From contig CAXMWX010000001.1 in NCBI GenBank assembly GCA_963422205.2, positions 256,001 through 320,000 of the forward strand: 64,000 nucleotides of DNA, in the 5' to 3' direction. The stretch's first letter is position 1, and every line of letters begins with the position of its first letter. The stretch is from Gammaproteobacteria bacterium (GTDB taxonomy: Bacteria; Pseudomonadota; Gammaproteobacteria; Eutrophobiales; Eutrophobiaceae). Of this stretch, positions 4,512 through 52,394 are shown in pieces. Below the pieces are notes generated by a model. That model saw nothing but the letters and a program-made list of their open reading frames with translations. It was not told the origin of the DNA and did no database searches. The position numbers and the translations under genes were made by a program.

Positions 4512-5231
4512 TCAGCGCGGCGATGATGTATCCTCATCAGGGAAGATGATCGACACCCGATAGTTATCTCCCCGCTGATTACGCATATTTGATATCCCGG
4601 TGAACCTGCGTAGCTGTGGTGCCGTCAGTGCATAGTCCAGCACGACCTTGCCGGCGATCAGGTTGACAAAGAAATTATCCGGTTCGATGACCATCCGCCT
4701 CAGCGTGTCCGTTGCCTGTTGCTGGTAGATCCTGAAGGTGACAAAACGCAGTAACGAGGGCACTAAAAAGGCTTTTTTTATCCTCTCACCTGCGGTCAGC
4801 TTATCCCAGTGTTGTGCAATCAGCCGATCAAAGCCGGCATCAACCAGCGCATTGTCGGGGATAGTGAGACGGGCTGTCCTGGTTTTATCTCCGGTTTTCC
4901 TGATAAATGTGACGATAAGCTCATCGGCAGTTTTTCTTGCCATTTCATAATGGCCGGATAAATGATTATCCAACGTAAAATCCGGCGTCAGTTGTGAGTG
5001 GGTATAGTCGACTGTCTTGCTGGCGAGCAAGCCGCCGTCAGGCAGCAGATACGTAACATCGTCTTTAAGCAGGGTAGCCCCATCCCAGGTCTCATGATGC
5101 ACTTCTGTGTACAAAAGCTGTTCGGTCTTGAGATCATAGGCATGACCCCGGCGTATTTTCACCTCCGCCAGGGCGGCATTGCCAGCAAGCAGGAAAACAA
5201 ACAGGCAGACAACACAGGATATGAGCGGCAT
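4512..5231 (-). CDS. Exported hypothetical protein, last gene of the lipid cluster
   Basis: Signal peptide (MPLISCVV...AALAE); LVDAGFD motif; 5 bp from upstream gene. Confidence 0.65.
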   Translation of the reverse strand: MPLISCVVCLFVFLLAGNAALAEVKIRRGHAYDLKTEQLLYTEVHHETWDGATLLKDDVTYLLPDGGLLASKTVDYTHSQLTPDFTLDNHLSGHYEMARKTADELIVTFIRKTGDKTRTARLTIPDNALVDAGFDRLIAQHWDKLTAGERIKKAFLVPSLLRFVTFRIYQQQATDTLRRMVIEPDNFFVNLIAGKVVLDYALTAPQLRRFTGISNMRNQRGDNYRVSIIFPDEDTSSPR

Positions 5232-14325: not shown

Positions 14326-14458
14326 TACCCCACCTCGGCTCATCTTATGGCCCATTGGCTAGTGCTGTACCAGCGGTGAATGGGCTGATCCAACGGCTGT
14401 CATTCCCGCACAGGCGGGGAGACAGCGCATTGATATGCCTGGATCAAACGCCTGTTGA

Positions 14459-44847: not shown

Positions 44848-45387
44848 TTAATTGATTTTATTTGTGCTGCCGGTGCTCGGTGGGTTCTTGTCCTCTTCAC
44901 GAGGACCATATTTCTGGATCAATTCTGCTGATAATTTTTCTGCCTCCGCCAGCTCGGCGGGCGATAAAAAACGCTTTGCCTCCGCTAGAGCCTGGATGGA
45001 TTGCTTGTGTTTGAACGCTGCCCCGACACGATACCAGGCATAGGCATATTCATAGTCCTTTGGCAGGCCATTGCCTTGCAGATAAAGATTGCCCAGCTTG
45101 AACTGCGCTTGTTCGATATGCCGTTCGGCGGCCTTACGCAGCCATTTGGCCGCCTCGGTATAATCCTGTTCAATGCCTTGGCCGTTGAGATACATGACCC
45201 CCAGATAGTATTGTGCAAGGCCGGTATATTCATCGTTGGTGGTCTCGGAGAGCGAACGCAGGGTGGCATAGGCCCGCTCATACTCGCCCCGGTGAAACGC
45301 GACAACCGCCTGGCTGAAATCAGCGATTGCGGTTGTGCTTGATAATAAAAGCATGACTGATAACAGAACGTGATATTTTATCTGCAT
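44848..45387 (-). CDS. Secreted Sel1-repeat protein
   Basis: AQYYLGVMYLNGQGIEQDYTEAAKWLRKAAE, AQFKLGNLYLQGNG.PKDY..AYAWY. Confidence 0.85.
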   Translation of the reverse strand: MQIKYHVLLSVMLLLSSTTAIADFSQAVVAFHRGEYERAYATLRSLSETTNDEYTGLAQYYLGVMYLNGQGIEQDYTEAAKWLRKAAERHIEQAQFKLGNLYLQGNGLPKDYEYAYAWYRVGAAFKHKQSIQALAEAKRFLSPAELAEAEKLSAELIQKYGPREEDKNPPSTGSTNKIN

Positions 45388-45471
45388 GTCGTATGGTTGG
45401 GTTAAGCGTTGTTGTGTTAGGACTGCCGAGCTGCTGAATTGTTGCATGCGGGCGCTGAAATGTAAACATGG

Positions 45472-46102
45472 TGTATAAGTCCACCACTATATTGCACTTT
45501 TTGTTGTGCTGGATAGGGTTCGACAAGCTCACCAACCAAATGTACTGCACGGGTGTTTGTCATCCCAGCCCCTTGTGTGGCCTTAGCCCGTTATATTTGA
45601 CCAGTCAATCGGCCAATGGTCGAAGCACTGGGACAGGGCAATCCCCTGGCCTGACACCAGGATCTGAGCAGTACCTGACACTGCTCTTTATCCAGATTGG
45701 GCAGGTCTTGGCGCCGTTGGCGTATCTGCTGGATAACCGCTTGTGGTCAGCGGCGAGTGCGCTTCGGTGCTTTGGGGGTCGGACACAAGCCAGACAGTCC
45801 CCACTCGCGGTAGGCTTTGCGCCAGGCATACAGGGTACGGCGGCTCTGGTGGGTGAGCTTGTCGAACCACTGCCACTGTGGTCAAGGGCGGGTCAGGCCA
45901 TGCTTGTCCCAGAATCTAAGCACACTGACTTGCCTGCACGCAGCACGCAAGCAGGGACGCTGTGCGGCGATTTGATTATTCATGTCCGCCCTTATTGCAT
46001 GGCTGCCCGTGCGATAAAAGCCTTTTATTCGATACCCTATATGCTGATAGTGCTCTCGTTCTCTCTCTTACGAATAGGGCAATAGGTTTCTGGACTTATA
46101 CA
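45472..46102 (-). mobile_element. Internally deleted IS481-family element with both terminal inverted repeats and a dead transposase N-terminus
   Basis: Ends TGTATAAGTCCACCACTATATTGC / GCAATAGGTTTCTGGACTTATACA; minus frame reads LRFWDKHGL..SRRTLYAWRK..PKAPKRTR*..PNLDKE..PCPSASTIGRL with stops. Confidence 0.75.
45929..45955. repeat. 27-bp palindromic micro-element, in frame in the IS481 transposase remnant
   Basis: CTTGCCTGCACGCAGCACGCAAGCAGG; removal restores AQRLSVLRFW. Confidence 0.75.
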
Positions 46103-46103
46103 C

Positions 46104-46482
46104 TGCCATTAACGCTGAAAACCGCCATACGGTAACGCCCCGGGGCTGGAGCCACGAGCAGGACAACACCAAAACGGTTCGCAATGACCGCAACACAGAT
46201 AAGATCATTGTGCGTGAGTTTGGTTTTAACGACTACCAGCGCATAGACAATTACGATTTTTCACCGGCCTATAATTACTGGGAAAAAACGTCCGGGTACT
46301 GGGGCAAGGTCAGGGAACTCTGGTCGCAGCGTATCGCTGAAACAGGATTGATTAATCTGAAAACTGAAGTCGATGGCATGCCCATTATCGAAGCCACGTT
46401 TAAACAGGCGGCAGCTATTGAAGAGGGCAGAGCCCGGCCAACTCAGAAAGAGGGGGTTGACGTATCTCTCGACAAATGCTGA
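46104..46482 (+). pseudogene. 3' fragment of a conserved hypothetical gene (DUF6607-like), cut by the IS481 end
   Basis: Frame reads NRHTVTPRGWSHEQDNTK..VREFGFNDY..YWEKTSGYWGKVR with no start; begins at the IS terminus. Confidence 0.55.
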
Positions 46483-46531
46483 CATGAAGCGTGCTATGAT
46501 TGCATATTACAGCGTTAGGTACATATCTTTG

Positions 46532-48702
46532 CTATTTCAATTTTATCATCACTGAATCTGTTGGCATATTAAATTTCTCCATTATATTAGCCAGTCTCAA
46601 TATACAGGTTGGTGCAGGGATGTTAATGTGAATGAACAGCAAGTCATCATTCGGGTCTTTAACTTTATTCTTTGGTATTCCATCAAACGTTTTGTATTTA
46701 TTGTTGAAGTTCACATCTGTTCTTTCTCTTTCTTTCAGCACACTCCATTTTAAAATAGTTTCTTCCCTAATGAATAAATCACGTTGATTATCCATGATGA
46801 ATTCAAAATCAAAGTCCGGATTGTTTTTAATATACTTGAGAAATTGAATAAACACATCCTGCCACGATTTAACTTTAAATACTTGATCTTCTATTGTTAA
46901 TTCTCCAGGTTTATTTCCTTCAGCCATTTCACCAGCATCAGATTCTAATGGAGAAAAGGTAGATTTTTCGACAAGCCGGGTATTCCAATTTGACGCCTCC
47001 TTTAAATTTTCAGGTAACGGAAAGGCATTTAGCAACCAGTTAATCATATTGGATTGGTGTTCCAATATGCTCTGTTCGTTCCAATTTTCACGTTTAATTA
47101 TGTCCAATCTGTAATTAAGCGAAGAGGTTTCAATCTTTCTTTTCTTCTCCTCAAACGATTTATTTCCAATCTCGCTGTTAAATTCTGTAAGGATTAAATT
47201 ACCAATATTGTCTAAATAGGTTTTATGGATTTCTTCATGGTTTTCCCCTAATTCTGATTTCCATTTATCCTCAATCTTTTGAGGCATTATATGCTCAACG
47301 GTCACTTTTTTATTATTTTCTTCAATCTTGCCAAGAATCAATTTAGAGTACTTGCTAAGACCTTTGTAGAAATTCATTGTTTTTAAGTTGTTACTTAGCT
47401 CTGTATCGTTCGGAAGTCTGAGCCTGAAACTCATATTGGTTAACAACTCCAGCATTGATCGTTCACCACGAATGATTTTTGGTATTCTCTTACTTAACGT
47501 TACTATATAATTTTCCCCTTGCGTAAGTCCCAATATTCTTCTTCTGATAAGATAAGTTCTGATTGATTGTAATATGTCTATTAACGCGTCATCCCTCAGC
47601 ATAAGTTCATTCACCTCATACTGGTGATATTCTAATAATCCTAATACAAATGGTTTAAATGCTTCTGATTTAATATCGTGAAATATTATTCTAAGTAATT
47701 CCTTAATCTCCTTATCCTTGGTGTTGTCGGGAGATATAGTGTCAGATGAAACCTCTGTTATTATCGGCTTATAACATTTTACATATCTGATAATGTCATG
47801 TATAAAGTCATTATGCTTTCAAAACTTCCGTCTACAAAATCCTTAAATTGTTGATATAACTCCTTTGTGTTATTGTCGCTTACAACTTTTAATGGTGTTG
47901 CTTTCCTGTATTGAAGATAATCTCGAAAAAACTTTGATGTGTTTTCATTTAAAATTTCTTCAATTTTTGGATACCAGGTTTGTTCGTAAATATCAGATTG
48001 TTTTTCGCTTTCCATGTTAAGCAGTACAAAGTTTCTTACAAGGTCAGATAGTGTTAATGGTTTGCCAAGAGAATTGAGTGTTTCAAAAATGACTTGAGGG
48101 TCTTCACTTTTAAAAGGTCTTTCATCCAGAAATATAACCGCTACATTTATTCTTTGTATAGCAATAATATATTGGTCAAATTTGACTTCCAGATTATCTT
48201 TCTTCTTTTCACGGATGAGTTTTTTAAACAATTCATATGCTATTTTTATTGTGCCAGGGTCTGCTTTCGTACCATTTACCAATGATTTGTATGAATCCCA
48301 ATCTTTTGTAACTTGTTTGAGTTTTATTTTGTCTTGAAATGTTGACGAATTATTCGTTAGATAATTCTGATTGATAAAATCGCTCTTGTCTTGCTCTGTT
48401 TCTGCATCTCTTAAAGCAATTAGAAATATTAATGTGGTTGTTAGCCTTTGTTGACCATCCACAATCACAGATTTATTTGCGAACCCGGCCTTTTCATCTT
48501 TGATAACAAGTGTACCGAAAAAGTGTTCACGTTTGTCTTTTTGCTTTTTATTTAACTCTGAATCAATAATTCTTGCTACATCGCTAAAATATCTTTCAAT
48601 TTCAGGTTTACCCCAAGCGTAGGATCTTTGAAATGGAGGAATGAAGAATGAGGTTGCATTCTTAGCTAATACATCATTTATAGAGTGGCTTTCCGTCTTC
48701 AT
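46532..48702 (-). pseudogene. GmrSD-type (DUF262 + DUF1524/HNH) restriction endonuclease with one frameshift near 47815
   Basis: IPPFQRSYAW, DGQQRLTT, IFETLNSLG, EHIMPQ, NIGNL...NSEIGNKSF; alternate frame 47815-47614 bridges the two ORFs; AT-rich. Confidence 0.85.
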
Positions 48703-48832
48703 TTATATTTTATTTTTTCGTTTTGGTTATGACTAATGTCCAGACAAACTCACTGAGCCTATCCCTTCAAATGTATTCTAAATGTTACTGCCTCGTAAAT
48801 AGATTCGGTGTGCTCATGGGGCTTATCATCTG

Positions 48833-49620
48833 TTACCCCTCGTTGATTTTTTGTTTGAGGGCGTGGAGTTGTTCCAGGGACAAGCCGGTCATTTCAATAA
48901 TGACTTCATCGCTTTTTCCCTGCTGAATCCCGTTTATTGCTACCTGCTCAATTCCTTGCTCAATTCCTTCTTCCCTCGCCGTATCCAGGGAATTCTTTAA
49001 ATCCCGATAGTATTTCAGACTGTCTTCATAGTTATTGAGCTGCTGGATATTGAACCTGGCAATCTCTGCCGTCTCAAACAGTTGGTCAAAGATCCGCTCC
49101 CGCAGCTTTTCAGGGATGCGATCCAGTTTGTTGAGGTTTCTCAGGATGTAAAGCCACTTGTCAAACCGGCTCACCAACTCATCAAGGGTTTTGCTGAACT
49201 TGGGCATTTCAAGGTAAATGAAGGTCAGCTTGTCGTAGAACACCCGGCATGTCTCCTCATCCATTAATTTAACGTCATACCGGTACTTGTGCGGCTCGTT
49301 TGGCCTGTTCGCGGATGGAAAAGGTGGCGTAGTAGACGGTGCGGTCTTTGAAGAAATTCTGCTTGGTTTTTTTGAAGTTCGACGATAAAGCGTTCGCCGC
49401 GCTCATTGGTGCAGTACAGGTCGAAAATGGCCCTGCGGTTCATATCTTGGTCAAGGTGTTCGTTTTTGAGGTAGGTCAACTCGGTGATGTGCCCCTGTTC
49501 TTCTCGGAGGAGTTCGTTGAGGAAGTCCAGCAGTAGGGCTTTGTTGGGTTCTTCTCCAAAGAGCTTTTTGAACCCAAAGTCGGTGAAGGGGTTGACGTAT
49601 TTTTCGACAAATTCTGACAT
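48833..49620 (-). pseudogene. Rpn / PD-(D/E)XK nuclease family transposase, frameshifted and internally deleted
   Basis: YVNPFTDFGFKKLFGEE, AIFDLYC..GERFIVELQK, FIYLEMPKF, AREEGIEQGIEQ; extra A at 49367-49373 and a missing segment near 49300. Confidence 0.85.
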
Positions 49621-49685
49621 GGCGTTTTACGGCAAAGGTACGACATTCAAGATCAGATTTCAATCTCTGTAATTTGAAATCTTGG

Positions 49686-49814
49686 AAGTAACGGTCACGT
49701 GTATGAGTAATGTGGGAGATTATGAGATGAAAACTTATCCAGTTACACCAACTTCTGTACGAGCCACAAACGCTCGCAAACCACTGAAACCCGCATATAC
49801 TATACACATTAGCT
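49686..49814 (-). repeat. attC-like imperfect hairpin
   Basis: Arms GTGTATGAGTAATGTGGG (49699-49716) and CCCGCATATACTATACAC (49790-49807) pair with bulges; flanked by GCTAAT and GTTAC on the minus strand. Confidence 0.5.
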
Positions 49815-49828
49815 GTGCTTTTTTGTTT

Positions 49829-50414
49829 TATTCTCTATTTTCAATTTCTTCCTCTTCTTTCTCAATGTCTCTGGGGATTTCAAAATGTTTATTAATTCCC
49901 TATCTATCAATTATCCACGATACAAGTGTTTCTCGTCTTTGCTTACAACTCTCAGAAGTCCAATCTTCGAATTCGGCTATTTTACGTTCTTGTTTGATGT
50001 CAGAATTTGCGTAACAATGTCCTGTCCCAGAGTTTCCTTTTTTTCTATCAAAGTCAAAATTTAGATAGCCCAGCATTACTACGTTTCCCCGACCACAGGA
50101 AAACTCGGTAAGAAAACAACTCTAAGGCTTTTAGTAAATCAATATATTTCTCGAGGCTTATCTCACCTGCTACAACTCTTTTTCCGAACAGCAATCATTA
50201 ATGGTAAATAATTAGCGACATTACCCGTGTTTTTAATTTTAGTCAGCCATATAAATTCATTTTTTATTTCCGAATCTTCTAATGGCTTAATAATCGCAGA
50301 ATAATGCATAGAGATTTCTGCTAAACCAGAAGTGATGATTGAAATAAAATTCTGTGTATCCTCTTTGGTCTTTTGGGAGAAGTCTCTTAATGGAATAACA
50401 TCATTGGACTTAAA
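49829..50414 (-). pseudogene. C-terminal remnant of a second DUF262/DUF1524-type protein
   Basis: Minus strand reads ELFSYRVFLWSGKRSNAG and WTSESCKQRRETLVSWII; 5' end cut by an IS481 end; AT-rich. Confidence 0.5.
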
Positions 50415-50484
50415 ACCCTATATGCTGATATTGCGCTCGTTCTCTCCCTTAAGAATAGTGCAATATGTTTCTGAACTTATACAC
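50415..50484 (-). mobile_element. Isolated IS481 left end (70 bp)
   Basis: 63/70 identical to 46034-46103, same orientation, ends CTTATACAC. Confidence 0.85.
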
Positions 50485-50529
50485 CTCTCTCTACGAATGC
50501 CTTTGCTGGCACTAAGCCGCAGTTTGGCA

Positions 50530-50559
50530 CCTGTCTGCATGCGGACACGTACAGGCAGA
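50530..50559. repeat. 30-bp palindromic micro-element, in frame in the IS1595 transposase
   Basis: CCTGTCTGCATGCGGACACGTACAGGCAGA adds LPVRVRMQTG; removal gives FWAYAKLRL. Confidence 0.8.
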
Positions 50560-50740
50560 TAAGCCCAGAAGGGCTCCATGCCATGGATGTGACTGGGCTG
50601 GTTGGCAAACGCATTGGCCCCGTGCACAACCCGAAAGTGCCTGGCGTAGCCCATATTGACTAGGCCATGATCGCCGCGCCAATCCTCCGAATGAAGGACG
50701 CTCTCGGGCGCGACTTTTCCCCGGATCACCGCTGGCAGTG

Positions 50741-50767
50741 CCTGCCTGTGCGATGCACGCAGACAGG
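50741..50767. repeat. 27-bp palindromic micro-element, in frame in the IS1595 transposase
   Basis: CCTGCCTGTGCGATGCACGCAGACAGG adds 9 codons; removal gives PDARNATLPAVIRGKV. Confidence 0.85.
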
Positions 50768-51124
50768 TGGCGTTGCGGGCATCGGGCAGGATCTCCGTGA
50801 ACCGCTGCCCGTGGCGCTGGAGTAGACCAAAGACGAGGGTTTTCTGCTTGGCACCGCGACCGCGTTTGCCACGGATGCACTTCCGGCCAAAGCAGGATTC
50901 ATCGACTTCGACCGCGCCGACAAAGGGCGATTGTTGTTCGCAAAAATCCGCAATGCGCTGGCGCAGTTTGAGGGAAATCGGGTGTACCGAGCTCAGGCGG
51001 ATGCCGGTCAATCGGGCACTGTCGGAAACGGTCAACTCCAGGGCAAAACAGCGGATCAGTTGCCGAAATGTCCGCTCGGTGATTTAAGGAACGGATGGAA
51101 TGCCTGTTTTCCCTAGTCATTTCA

Positions 51125-51154
51125 CCTTCCTGTGCGTGTCAGCACGCAGACAGG
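51125..51154. repeat. 30-bp palindromic micro-element just upstream of the IS1595 start codon
   Basis: CCTTCCTGTGCGTGTCAGCACGCAGACAGG. Confidence 0.8.
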
Positions 51155-51407
51155 GAAGCGTAGCACCCATCTGGTAGGGCTTAACTTCCTATGATCCAAA
51201 CAGGATAAAAATCCAGCCATGCCAGCGGCAGCGGGCTGTGCTGTAGCAAGGCCGGGCAGGACGGCAGAACCTCGCCGGCCTCTTCAGACATCCCCCCATC
51301 CGCCTGCTGGAACAACGCTACCGTGCTCATATCCTCTGTATCCCCTGACATCTGCCCCGTTATATTGCCTAAGACAGGCACAACACGCTGCAATATAATG
51401 GCGCACT

Positions 51408-52394
51408 ATGCGTATGCTGACCCAAGTCGGCCTGGTGGCCGGTCTGCTGTTGCTTATCGGCCTGCTGGCCTGGCAGGGTGTGCTGGATATTTTGGCGCTG
51501 CTGCTGGCCTCTGGCTGGTGGCTGCTGGCCCTGCCGTTTGTCTGGCTGCCCAGCCTGCTGGTCGCAACCCAGGGCTGGTTATGCGTGTTCCCCGAAGGTG
51601 CTGCCCCCCGTTATGTCCATGCACTGGTCGCTATGTGGGTAGGCCGGGCGGTCAACGATCTGCTGCCGGTTGCCACCATCGGCGGTGAGATCATCAAGGC
51701 ACGTATGTTGTTCATCAAGGGATATGCGGGGCTGGATGCAGCGGCCTCGGTGATGGTGGACAAGGCAGTACAGGCCCTGTCGGTGGCCTGCTGGGGCTGC
51801 ATCGGCGTGCTCGTATTGTTGATGATTTCACGCCACGCCGAACTGGCCGGTTATGCCGTTATCGGTTTTCTCATTTTGAGCATTTCGGCCATGATCTTCA
51901 TGCGTATGCAGCATCTGGGCATCTTGGGTGTGCTGGCAAAATCAGGCGGCCGGCTGATTAAAACCGATAGCTGGCGGGGATTGACCCTGAACGCACATCA
52001 GGTGGATGAGCGGATAAGGCAGCTCTATAGCCACCACCACCAGATCATCGGCTGCCTGCTGTTAAGAACCGCCTCGCTTGCACTGCAAACCCTGGAAGTC
52101 TGGCTGGCGTGCTATCTGTTAGGCCACCCCATCAGCCTGCCAGAAGCGGTCATGCTCAGGAGCCTGACCTCCACCTTGAGCGATATCGCCTTTATTATCC
52201 CCAATGCCTATGGCGTACAGGAAGGCGCTTTCATTATCATCGGCAGCATGATAGGGCTGAGTGCGGAGCTTGCTCTGGCGCTTTCCCTGTCGCTTCGAAT
52301 TCGTGATCTGTTGCTGGACCCGGCCGGGCTTATCTACCTGCAACACCTCGAAAGTCGGCGCTACCTTGCCCAAAAAAAACTGGCATCGGGCTGA
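51408..52394 (+). CDS. HpnL-like lysylphosphatidylglycerol-synthase-domain (flippase-like) membrane protein
   Basis: AVNDLLPVATIGGE, AFIIPNAYGVQEG; many TM segments; hopanoid gene context. Confidence 0.75.
   Translation: MRMLTQVGLVAGLLLLIGLLAWQGVLDILALLLASGWWLLALPFVWLPSLLVATQGWLCVFPEGAAPRYVHALVAMWVGRAVNDLLPVATIGGEIIKARMLFIKGYAGLDAAASVMVDKAVQALSVACWGCIGVLVLLMISRHAELAGYAVIGFLILSISAMIFMRMQHLGILGVLAKSGGRLIKTDSWRGLTLNAHQVDERIRQLYSHHHQIIGCLLLRTASLALQTLEVWLACYLLGHPISLPEAVMLRSLTSTLSDIAFIIPNAYGVQEGAFIIIGSMIGLSAELALALSLSLRIRDLLLDPAGLIYLQHLESRRYLAQKKLASG

Follow-up and report, generated by a model that had tools for sequence, protein, structure and literature searches.

Short REP-like hairpins in transposase pseudogenes of a Gammaproteobacteria bacterium and their counterparts in other bacterial phyla

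The window, which is the whole 64-kb stretch of DNA that was analysed, carries two degenerate insertion sequences (IS) on its minus strand. The first is an IS1595/ISXO2-type transposase pseudogene (50485..51120; NF033547, PF12762; repeat D1), which is frameshifted after about 10 codons and which the end of another element truncates at 50485. The second (45470..46103) is a 634-bp, internally deleted derivative of an rve-type (IS481/IS3-like) IS; it has an HTH region interrupted by no fewer features than 34-nt terminal inverted repeats at its ends and three in-frame stops, and its right end recurs at 50395-50484. The window contains exactly four GC-rich imperfect palindromes, and their coordinates, lengths (27, 30, 27 and 30 bp) and orientations are all as the initial annotation gave them. 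Copy 1 (45929..45955, minus strand, 27 bp) has variant arms, reads CCTGCTTGCGTG-CTG-CGTGCAGGCAAG on the minus strand, and inserts the peptide PCLRAACRQ, in frame, into the HTH region near the N terminus of the rve/IS481-like transposase pseudogene. Copy 2 (50530..50559, plus strand, 30 bp) lies in the opposite orientation to the other copies and has the paired change G10A and C21T; in the minus-strand reading it places LPVRVRMQTG after FWAY and before AKLRL in the IS1595-type transposase. Copy 3 (50741..50767, minus strand, 27 bp), the arms of which are the exact consensus, places CLRASHRQA between DARNAT and LPAVIRG of the same transposase. Copy 4 (51125..51154, minus strand, 30 bp) is non-coding; 4 nt separate its end from the downstream ATG (51120) with which the IS1595-type gene starts, and AGGAAGG in its 3' arm resembles a putative ribosome-binding site.

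At the 24 consensus arm positions, copies 1 to 4 have 5, 3, 0 and 1 mismatches, respectively. The remaining matches in the window have 6-7 mismatches, and each of 30 shuffles gives 2-11 such matches; a strict degenerate pattern found none in 100 shuffles. A covariance model scored the four copies at 30.4, 37.7, 44.4 and 40.8 bits (E 3e-7 to 2.7e-4), a match that is partly by construction as the model was built from 56 copies which include these four. The best unrelated site in the window reached 15.0 bits (E 0.47), so that the 64 kb contains four copies and no more.

Copies 1 to 3 amount to 9 or 10 extra in-frame codons in two unrelated transposase pseudogenes. It had been proposed that their excision leaves continuous family-like sequence, and the insert-free homologues of both transposase types agree with this. 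Both IS1595-type inserts are absent in 10 of 12 aligned homologues (DARNAT^LPAVIRG and FWAY^AKLRL), no hairpin-encoded peptide is present in 118 of the 120 listed homologues of this type, and all three rve-type homologues read AQR-LRVL without the 9 residues of copy 1. The proposed absence of target duplication was likewise borne out, as the codon-level junctions show exact 27- or 30-bp insertions at the three coding sites of the window, at a position that is unambiguous for copy 1 and has a 1-nt ambiguity for copies 2 and 3.

The IS1595 relative P0001 (88% identical) has the insert of copy 3 at the identical site, and P0057, another relative, holds two inserts and reads LPVRVRTQTG where copy 2 sits; consensus hairpin peptides are present in an IS copy that is just 61-68% identical. 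(Outside the IS, the Ffh protein P0139 has 70% identity to the Ffh of the window.) The IS debris that contains all four copies covers about 1.4 kb of the 64 kb, and the 59 kb of surrounding core genes contain no copy. The window copies are probably passengers inherited with IS copies, a reading supported by the insert sites common to P0001, P0057 and the IS1595 copy of the window. Acquisition by the two IS elements would have come first, for copies 2 and 3 at the least prior to the divergence of the IS1595 lineages, and the copies would then have travelled with them; such earlier acquisition and joint travel would explain why all four copies lie in IS debris and none in core genes.

On the better-pairing strand, the hairpin consists of CCTGTCTGCGTG, a 3- or 6-nt centre of regular form (CNA or CGNNCA) and CGCACAGGCAGG; the whole measures exactly 27 or 30 bp, or in rare cases 33 or 36 bp. 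In the consensus and in each of the 56 aligned copies the first bases are CCTG or CTTG and the last are CAGG, CAGA or CAAG, and the family also includes diverged copies and subfamilies. In predicted DNA folds (-6.7 kcal/mol and z -1.9 for the 27-mer, -9.2 kcal/mol and z -2.8 for the 30-mer) there is an inner stem TGCGT(G) with a loop of 3-4 nt. Among the matches listed, the length is a multiple of three in 99 of 119 copies. The suggestion that the frame is preserved by selection at each site did not hold, since 27 and 30 are the modal lengths in intergenic DNA too, and multiples of three are as common there (37/44 copies) as in ORFs (20/22) among the matches listed. Similarly, 108 of the 119 copies listed have no stop in any of the six frames, and this was rejected as a design feature because it is found in 75% of random palindromes matched for composition.

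A scan of species genomes found at least 119 exact-arm copies in at least 116 loci. The matches listed come from uncultured bacteria of more than 20 phyla and have near-invariant arms; for example, the same arms occur in Planctomycetota, Latescibacterota, Desulfobacterota, Patescibacteria, Firmicutes and Proteobacteria. The flanks are mostly unique between loci, and their GC content ranges over 26-71% compared with 60-74% for the element. Hence, near-invariant arms within unrelated flanks of differing GC content in many phyla imply that the hairpin unit itself moves, and not the region around it. There are at least 1-4 exact copies per metagenome-assembled genome (MAG) and at least 1-2 per complete Latescibacterota chromosome, and in 578 kb of flanks the covariance model found about 14 matches besides the copies already ascertained. 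Among complete genomes, OZ241917.1, OZ244744.1 and CAWDMI010000002.1 are examples of carriers. A collection of 50,697 phage records gave no match, and one of 72,556 plasmids gave a single weak partial match.

All 116 loci among the matches listed are MAG records, and this, together with the lack of phage matches and, among the plasmids of cultured organisms, a lone weak and partial match, might point to an artefact of metagenome assembly or binning. Such an origin is extremely improbable, as the genes concerned are colinear apart from insertions that are exact and in frame, complete chromosomes of several megabases and contigs of more than 50 kb from several phyla carry the element, diverged copies and subfamilies exist, and one orthologous site (L012/L060) is filled in independent assemblies of related species.

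Among the matches listed, 44 of 66 classifiable copies are intergenic, located between divergent, tandem and convergent genes alike. Non-mobile genes hold five of the eight copies that lie well inside Pfam-annotated ORFs in this set, and in-frame copies lie in the core genes for UvrD (L041), a RecJ-like protein, the CCA-adding enzyme (L063) and a GGDEF protein. The restriction to IS elements seen by the initial annotation is therefore true of the window (4/4) and is not supported elsewhere, where transposases are only three of the 16 Pfam-annotated host ORFs among the matches listed. These data also bear on the idea that a host or a rival system marks or disables IS elements by means of the insert. 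It would fit the confinement of the window copies to about 1.4 kb of IS debris, the two inserts of P0057 and the few transposase hosts elsewhere, but it is very improbable given the prevalence of intergenic copies, the copies in core genes, the housekeeping genes that neighbour the multi-copy loci, and the 118 of 120 IS1595 homologues without an insert.

The insertion sites share a junction preference, YR^CR, and no fixed target word: position -1 is G or A in 99 and position +1 is C in 88 of the 116 copies among the matches listed, and the commonest junctions are CG^CA, CA^CG and TG^CG. Filled and empty sites are both found at L019, where a 25-nt repeat has 20 copies, 18 of them empty and two with a 33-nt hairpin placed exactly between GGATGRA and CAGGAT; neither of these two sites has a target duplication. 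Copies also lie inside CGTC-type REP hairpins (L005, L010, L026 and L030) and inside other copies, self-nesting being seen in the flanks of L018, L045, L103, L077, L037, L114, L003 and L081, and the model recovers outer nested copies at L018 (145-201), L045 (3361-3417), L003 (4990-5040) and L037 (4990-5046). Loops of flanking palindromes were rejected as a general target, as 7-8 of the 8 flank bases are complementary in just three of 116 copies (controls 0.7%); such a loop is an occasional target and not the rule. The IS91-type hosts L038 and L112 have no common insert site.

The palindromic anatomy of two arms around a short variable centre, and the position of all four window copies within a transposon graveyard, would also be expected of footprints left by a larger transposon with 12-nt terminal inverted repeats that was lost by nearly precise excision. 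This is distinctly improbable. No separated pair of arms encloses a larger segment in the 663,546 bases of the window and loci, and the lone arms belong to nested copies or variants. Moreover, the target duplication expected from DDE transposons is missing, and the centres are regular (CNA, CGNNCA), with a length that is a multiple of three in most of the copies listed.

At the orthologous site L012/L060, 29 of 30 hairpin bases are alike compared with 79% in the flanks. This conservation in excess of the surroundings is compatible with selection, with conversion or with insertion recurring at one site, and equally with selfish spread. The hairpin could be a functional module under selection that is spread by gene transfer, and not a selfish element, such as a protein-binding site, an RNA-stability or regulatory stem-loop, or a 12-6-12 recombinase core site. 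Consistent with this are arms more conserved than the flanks and than the host IS, the position of copy 4 exactly at the ribosome-binding position of a transposase gene, the low copy number per genome (counts that are lower bounds), and the paired change G10A and C21T in two of 55 distinct sequences. However, the covariation is not significant in either pairing register (42 of 500 shuffles reach the observed level), the 3-bp centre of the 27-bp form is too short as a tyrosine-recombinase spacer, no Rfam family matches, and the copies have either orientation, lie within as well as outside coding sequence, nest in one another and occur between genes of every arrangement. Hence, a functional module is considered unlikely.

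A search of Rfam over 45000-52000 gave no match even at E values as high as 10, and 12 loci had none at gathering scores. In general terms, the hairpins resemble REPs, being imperfect stem-loop palindromes of 27-36 bp (20-40 bp in REPs) that are dispersed and mainly extragenic among the matches listed. REPs have tens to thousands of copies per genome, and the exact copies here, at least 1-4 per MAG, look few beside classic REPs. GTAG REPs and REPINs reportedly come with RAYT (Y1 HUH) transposases, as is said to have been described by Nunvar in 2010, by Bertels and Rainey in 2011 and by Ton-Hoang in 2012. They share with the hairpin a small imperfect palindrome, a proposed role as single-stranded DNA hairpin substrate and the lack of coding capacity (PMC3733652). 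Their unpaired end tag, GTAG (or GYRG), is absent from the consensus and from all 56 aligned copies, and unlike GTAG REPs the hairpins form no doublets, are not species-specific and have no copy-flanked RAYT gene in the loci examined.

Rickettsia palindromic elements (RPEs) are about 100-150 bp long. They are palindromes inserted in frame, and tolerated, in protein-coding genes (PMC3733652), as the hairpins are here. RPEs are known from one genus only, whereas the hairpins, of 27-36 bp, occur across phyla. Coding sequences of fungal mitochondria are likewise invaded by tiny GC-rich hairpins, namely mobile GC clusters and the translational 'byp' elements, of which the byps are skipped by the ribosome. 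These belong to another compartment, the resemblance is one of form, and nothing in the present data points to bypass. MITEs are 70-300 bp long with terminal inverted repeats and target duplication, in contrast to 27-36 bp without duplication. Elements of the IS200/IS605 type (PATEs) likewise make no target duplication; they insert 3' of a fixed tetra- or pentanucleotide, with a strand bias and two different end hairpins, and the present element shows a YR^CR preference, no orientation bias and one symmetric hairpin. A CRISPR repeat was rejected, most loci having one exact match and the multi-copy spacing being irregular (about 50 bp to 4.6 kb). An integron attC site has the core sites RYYYAAC ... 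GTTRRRY, and it was rejected as these R''/R' sites are absent from the consensus.

The CGTC superfamily of REPs includes dRS3 of Neisseria and RPE-4/-6 of Rickettsia (Di Nocera et al., 2013; PMC3733652). These REPs are also GC-rich stem-loops of 20-40 bp, mostly extragenic but present in genes including those for DNA repair, found in several phyla and with no dedicated transposase known (PMC3733652). The hairpin has TGTC, a variant of the CGTC tag, at positions 3-6, directly before the inner stem; however, the tag of CGTC REPs is unpaired (PMC3733652), whereas TGTC pairs with GGCAGG at the 3' end in the predicted fold. Further differences are a stem of 5-6 bp, or 12 bp with mismatches, against 8-9 bp starting with AT, a loop of 3-4 nt against 4-5 nt, a tail CAGG against CCA, and single copies against head-to-head dimers (PMC3733652). 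Few copies per genome (lower bounds) and near-identical arms across more than 20 phyla also set the hairpin apart from CGTC REPs. In the literature no description of the hairpin was found and the 12-nt arm strings match only unrelated primers, though the family consensus lists of PMC3733652, which lay outside the search, could hold a related family.

The initial annotation had stated that the mobilising enzyme is not visible, and indeed no Y1/HUH gene was found in the window. The 77 ORFs of 11 multi-copy loci contain no Y1/HUH gene and no transposase domain by Pfam, which assigned them housekeeping, toxin-antitoxin and defence-type domains, and an all-against-all BLAST of 495 flank ORFs revealed no linked gene family, the largest cluster being four ORFs from three loci. 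There is no orientation bias relative to local GC skew (35 versus 38) or to the coding strand (38 versus 35), a weak test for a near-symmetric element; its absence counts against a strand-specific single-stranded DNA mechanism, which might give such a bias. The hairpin would be non-autonomous and mobilised in trans by an enzyme encoded elsewhere. The most likely kind would be a single-strand DNA transposase of the HUH/Y1 type, such as has been proposed for REPs and RAYTs, because transposition of this type works on hairpins and duplicates no target. Insertion itself proceeds without target duplication, preferably at YR^CR, mostly in intergenic DNA and sometimes at the tips of small repeats or in its own copies, and occasional insertions in genes add 9-12 residues owing to a length that is a multiple of three.

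Taken as a whole, it is moderately probable that the four copies are a non-autonomous REP-like hairpin micro-element that is mobilised in trans and rides as a passenger of the IS of the window. The original idea of an ultra-small mobile element thus stands as regards dispersed, inserted units and is not supported as regards specificity for IS. More tentatively, the hairpin may be minimal mobile DNA of a new kind, 27 or 30 nt that insert without target duplication at YR^CR steps and hairpin tips, cross more than 20 phyla as a passenger of IS, MITEs and small repeats and are moved by a widely transferred enzyme or a universal host enzyme. Such an enzyme, whether dedicated and widely transferred or of the host, would account for arms that do not co-diverge with the host, unlike REP-RAYT pairs.

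As regards the window, the outcome is a modest one, its copies being probably old passengers in IS elements that are dead. The inserts matter for annotation, as they lengthen real proteins (UvrD, RecJ-like, CCA-adding enzyme) by 9-12 residues and give rise to spurious peptides such as PVCVxRTGR, CLRAxxHRQ and LPVRxTQT. As a rule, small palindromic repeats are specific to a lineage and linked to a transposase that co-evolves with them, and a hairpin with the same arms across phyla contrasts with this. As a sharply defined substrate with clean filled and empty sites, it could help to find the mover of transposase-less REPs, for example those of the CGTC class.

The window contains a GC-rich imperfect palindrome in four copies, at 45929-45955 (copy 1, 27 bp), 50530-50559 (copy 2, 30 bp), 50741-50767 (copy 3, 27 bp) and 51125-51154 (copy 4, 30 bp), with copy 2 in the opposite orientation to the other three. 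The consensus on the better-pairing strand consists of CCTGTCTGCGTG, a 3- or 6-nt centre and CGCACAGGCAGG, and copies 1, 2, 3 and 4 show 5, 3, 0 and 1 mismatches, respectively, against its 24 arm positions; weaker matches in the window carry 6-7 mismatches, a level also attained by shuffled sequence. A covariance model scored the four copies at 30.4-44.4 bits, a match that is partly by construction as they are among the 56 family members in the model, and no other unrelated site in the whole 64-kb window exceeded 15.0 bits. Hence, the 64 kb hold exactly four copies, and the sequence confirmed the coordinates, lengths and orientation given in the initial annotation.

Copies 2 and 3 are located within a minus-strand IS1595/ISXO2-type transposase gene (NF033547, PF12762), which begins with an ATG at 51120, is frameshifted after about 10 codons and is truncated at 50485 by the end of another element. 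Copy 4 is non-coding and ends 4 nt upstream of this ATG. Its 3' arm AGGAAGG (region 51118-51154) resembles a ribosome-binding site of the transposase gene, and the hairpin could sequester this putative site. The host of copy 1 is an rve-type (IS481/IS3-like) transposase, with the copy in its HTH region; the gene remains as an internally deleted 634-bp element (45470-46103) with 34-nt terminal inverted repeats and three stop codons.

It had been proposed that excision of the coding copies leaves continuous family-like sequence with no target duplication, and this is borne out by insert-free homologues and codon junctions. Both insert segments are missing from 10 of 12 aligned IS1595 homologues, and the nine residues of copy 1 are absent from all three homologues of the rve-type protein. 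Read codon by codon, the inserts measure exactly 27, 30 and 27 bp, and their excision restores ATLP, AYAK and RLS; a 2-bp duplication model breaks the frame, and hence there is no target duplication. In a pattern scan of 120 listed IS1595 homologues, hairpin-encoded peptides occurred in two only. The first (P0001, 88% identical) carries CLRASHRQA at the copy 3 site, and the other (P0057, 61-68% identical) carries LPVRVRTQTG at the copy 2 site and a second insert between IR and GKRGRG.

The two IS remnants enclose a low-GC island (37-40% GC) in a chromosome of 51-58% GC. The island holds, on the minus strand, a split GmrSD-type restriction endonuclease gene (46535-48702; GmrSD_N ORF 47782-48702, GmrSD_C ORF 46535-47614) and a PD-(D/E)XK (PDDEXK_2, Rpn-like) gene (48836-49620) divided into two ORFs by a frameshift; a 37-nt copy of the 5' end of the latter, 89% identical, lies at 46450-46486. 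A second right end of the rve-type IS (50395-50484, 82% over 90 nt) adjoins and truncates the IS1595-type gene. The remainder of the window is ordinary proteobacterial chromosome with sdh, ffh, hopanoid hpn and class III PHA synthase genes; no other entry of the protein collection exceeds 71% identity to the Ffh encoded there, and gammaproteobacterial MAGs make up the few named relatives. A lone intergenic hairpin at 14396-14427, CTGTCATTCCCGCACAGGCGGGGAGACAG, resembles a CGTC/TGTC-tagged REP and has no second copy in the window.

The species-genome collection was scanned with a pattern of 23 fixed arm positions (four as two-base codes) and 1-12 central bases. At least 117 stretches matched, and the 116 loci examined, all MAG records, comprise 119 matches. 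Among the matches listed, the hosts include Thermodesulfobacteriota and other 'delta' groups, Latescibacterota (four complete chromosomes), Planctomycetota (Kuenenia, Brocadiaceae, Phycisphaerae), Verrucomicrobiota (including Kiritimatiellae and Lentisphaeria), Zeta-, Gamma- and Alphaproteobacteria, Gallionellaceae, Campylobacterota, Methylomirabilota, Nitrospirota, Nitrospinota, Acidobacteriota, Bacteroidota, Firmicutes, Actinobacteria, Chloroflexi, Atribacterota, Bipolaricaulota, WOR-3, Omnitrophota, Patescibacteria, Spirochaeta, Deferribacteres and Binatia. Several loci are on contigs longer than 50 kb. The flanks of different loci are mostly unrelated to one another, with a GC content of 26-71% against 60-74% for the element among the matches listed. 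For the 30-nt form, 50,697 phage records gave no match, and 72,556 plasmids gave a single weak, partial one.

The predicted fold comprises the outer stem CCTGTC/GGCAGG, in which one pair is G·T, a bulge of 2 nt, a perfect inner stem TGCGT(G)/(C)ACGCA and a loop of 3-4 nt. Another register, of 12 bp with one C·A mismatch, is about equally good, and covariation does not separate the two, as the members were collected by their exact arms; the single paired change, G10A with C21T, was seen in locus L105 and window copy 2. The centre is CNA in 27-mers and CGNNCA in 30-mers. Subfamilies exist that keep the outer arms with a different inner stem (CCTGTCTGCCGTGCC...GGCACAGGCAGG) or that have CTTG/CAAG outer arms, as in window copy 1.

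Among the 119 matches listed, the lengths are 27 (58 copies), 30 (36), 33 (3), 36 (2), 26 (9), 29 (7), 28 (2), 31 (1) and 35 nt (1), and thus 99 are multiples of three. The initial annotation took such frame preservation as a hint of selection for translatability or of removal at the DNA or RNA level. Selection at each site is not supported: multiples of three are equally common between genes (37/44) and in ORFs (20/22), and therefore are a property of the family rather than of site-by-site selection. Freedom from stops in all six frames (108/119 of the matches listed) was rejected as a special feature, as it is shared by 75% of random palindromes matched in composition.

Of 66 classifiable copies, 22 fall in ORFs with 110 or more codons; the others are intergenic, with 25 between tandem, 12 between divergent and 7 between convergent genes. 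An open frame of at least 60 codons spans 109 of the 119 matches listed, and 16 of these frames have a Pfam match. The copy falls in the first 50 codons in about half of these 16 (the first 30 in 7/8), and such N-terminal copies probably lie upstream of the true start. Eight copies well inside ORFs were found, in UvrD (L041), dCache-GGDEF (L056), CCA-adding/poly(A) polymerase (L063), an LRR protein (L074), a RecJ-like protein (L077), a UPF0236/ISL3 transposase (L009) and IS91 Y2 transposases (L038, L112). Compared with PcrA, the UvrD (4970-5130 of its locus) is longer by about 45 residues between helicase motifs, a segment with more than one hairpin inside. It consists of two or more hairpin-type inserts, one of which sits within a CCCGCC...GGCGGG palindrome.

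The suggested association with IS elements stands for the window, where some 1.4 kb of IS debris contains all four copies, but IS targeting is not supported, as 44 of 66 classifiable copies elsewhere are intergenic. Two window copies are common to diverged IS1595 copies in other genomes, which, together with the debris setting, points to the window copies having ridden in with the IS elements. The hairpin is also better conserved than its surroundings: in two Zetaproteobacteria MAGs (L012, L060) 29 of 30 bases are the same with flanks at 79%, and consensus hairpin peptides are kept in the IS copy that is 61-68% identical (P0057). This could reflect selection or conversion, or else preferred sites that are hit repeatedly. 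In the same two MAGs (L012 1600-1790; L060, reverse strand) the hairpin lies within a conserved segment of about 190 nt with complementary ends GAGCCAATTGCAAAACTC ... GAGTTTTGCAATTGGCTC, for which no Rfam family match was found.

The insertion sites show some preferences. Among the matches listed, the preceding base is G or A in 99/116 and the following base C in 88/116, the commonest junctions being CG^CA, CA^CG and TG^CG; perfect flank palindromes are rare (3/116). Flank inspection found nested copies, in either orientation, at or beside the centre of another copy in eight loci (L018, L045, L103, L077, L037, L114, L003, L081), and the covariance model recovered the outer copy in L018, L045, L003 and L037. 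Likewise, copies occur inside CGTC-type REP hairpins (L005, L010, L026, L030), and in L050 one occupies the centre of a MITE-like inverted repeat. In a Latescibacterota chromosome (OZ241917.1, L019), a 25-nt repeat, CATGGATGRACAGGATnnnCAGGAT, has 20 copies in 10 kb, partly in 136-nt tandem arrays; 18 are empty, and the other two are filled by a 33-nt hairpin placed exactly between GGATGRA and CAGGAT, with no duplication and with different inner stems in the two hairpins. The repeat also occurs in L020 of that chromosome, and an alphaproteobacterial MAG (L051) has a hairpin in the same target type, ATGGA^CAGGAT. In Desulfobacterota and Kiritimatiellae MAGs, the hairpin has another short repeat nearby, TGACAGGATnAACAGGAT, at a distance of 4-24 nt in L017, L034, L050 and L071 and of 148 nt in L070; this repeat forms MITE-like inverted ends around the hairpin in L050, and L070 and L071 have 59 nt of it in common (97% identical).

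No gene family recurs beside the copies among the flank ORFs compared, no transposase was found among 77 ORFs of multi-copy loci, and the arm search of the window and loci found no separated arm pair bracketing a larger element. The element would be mobilised in trans by an enzyme encoded elsewhere. An ssDNA (HUH-type) route is favoured, as it leaves no duplication and acts on hairpins; copies showed no orientation bias relative to GC skew or coding strand, so strand bias lends this route no support.

The closest known kind is the REP, especially the transposase-less CGTC class, which occurs in several phyla and also inside genes, DNA-repair genes among them (PMC3733652). The present family is likewise found in several phyla and within genes, but its stem, loop, tail and dimer arrangement do not fit the details that define the class. 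It also lacks the tag of GTAG/RAYT REPs, no RAYT gene flanked by copies was found in the loci examined, and for a MITE it is too small and has no target duplication. No Rfam family was found for it (45000-52000 of the window; 12 loci), nor any earlier description of it in the literature searched. It is therefore filed as a REP variant not described before in that literature. Its most unusual trait is the occurrence of one sequence in more than 20 phyla of uncultured bacteria, counted from MAG records only, among the matches listed. Overall, the results show a non-coding unit that is dispersed, inserts precisely and spreads without its flanks; the unit and coding sequence tolerate each other, and it tends to lodge in other small repeats.
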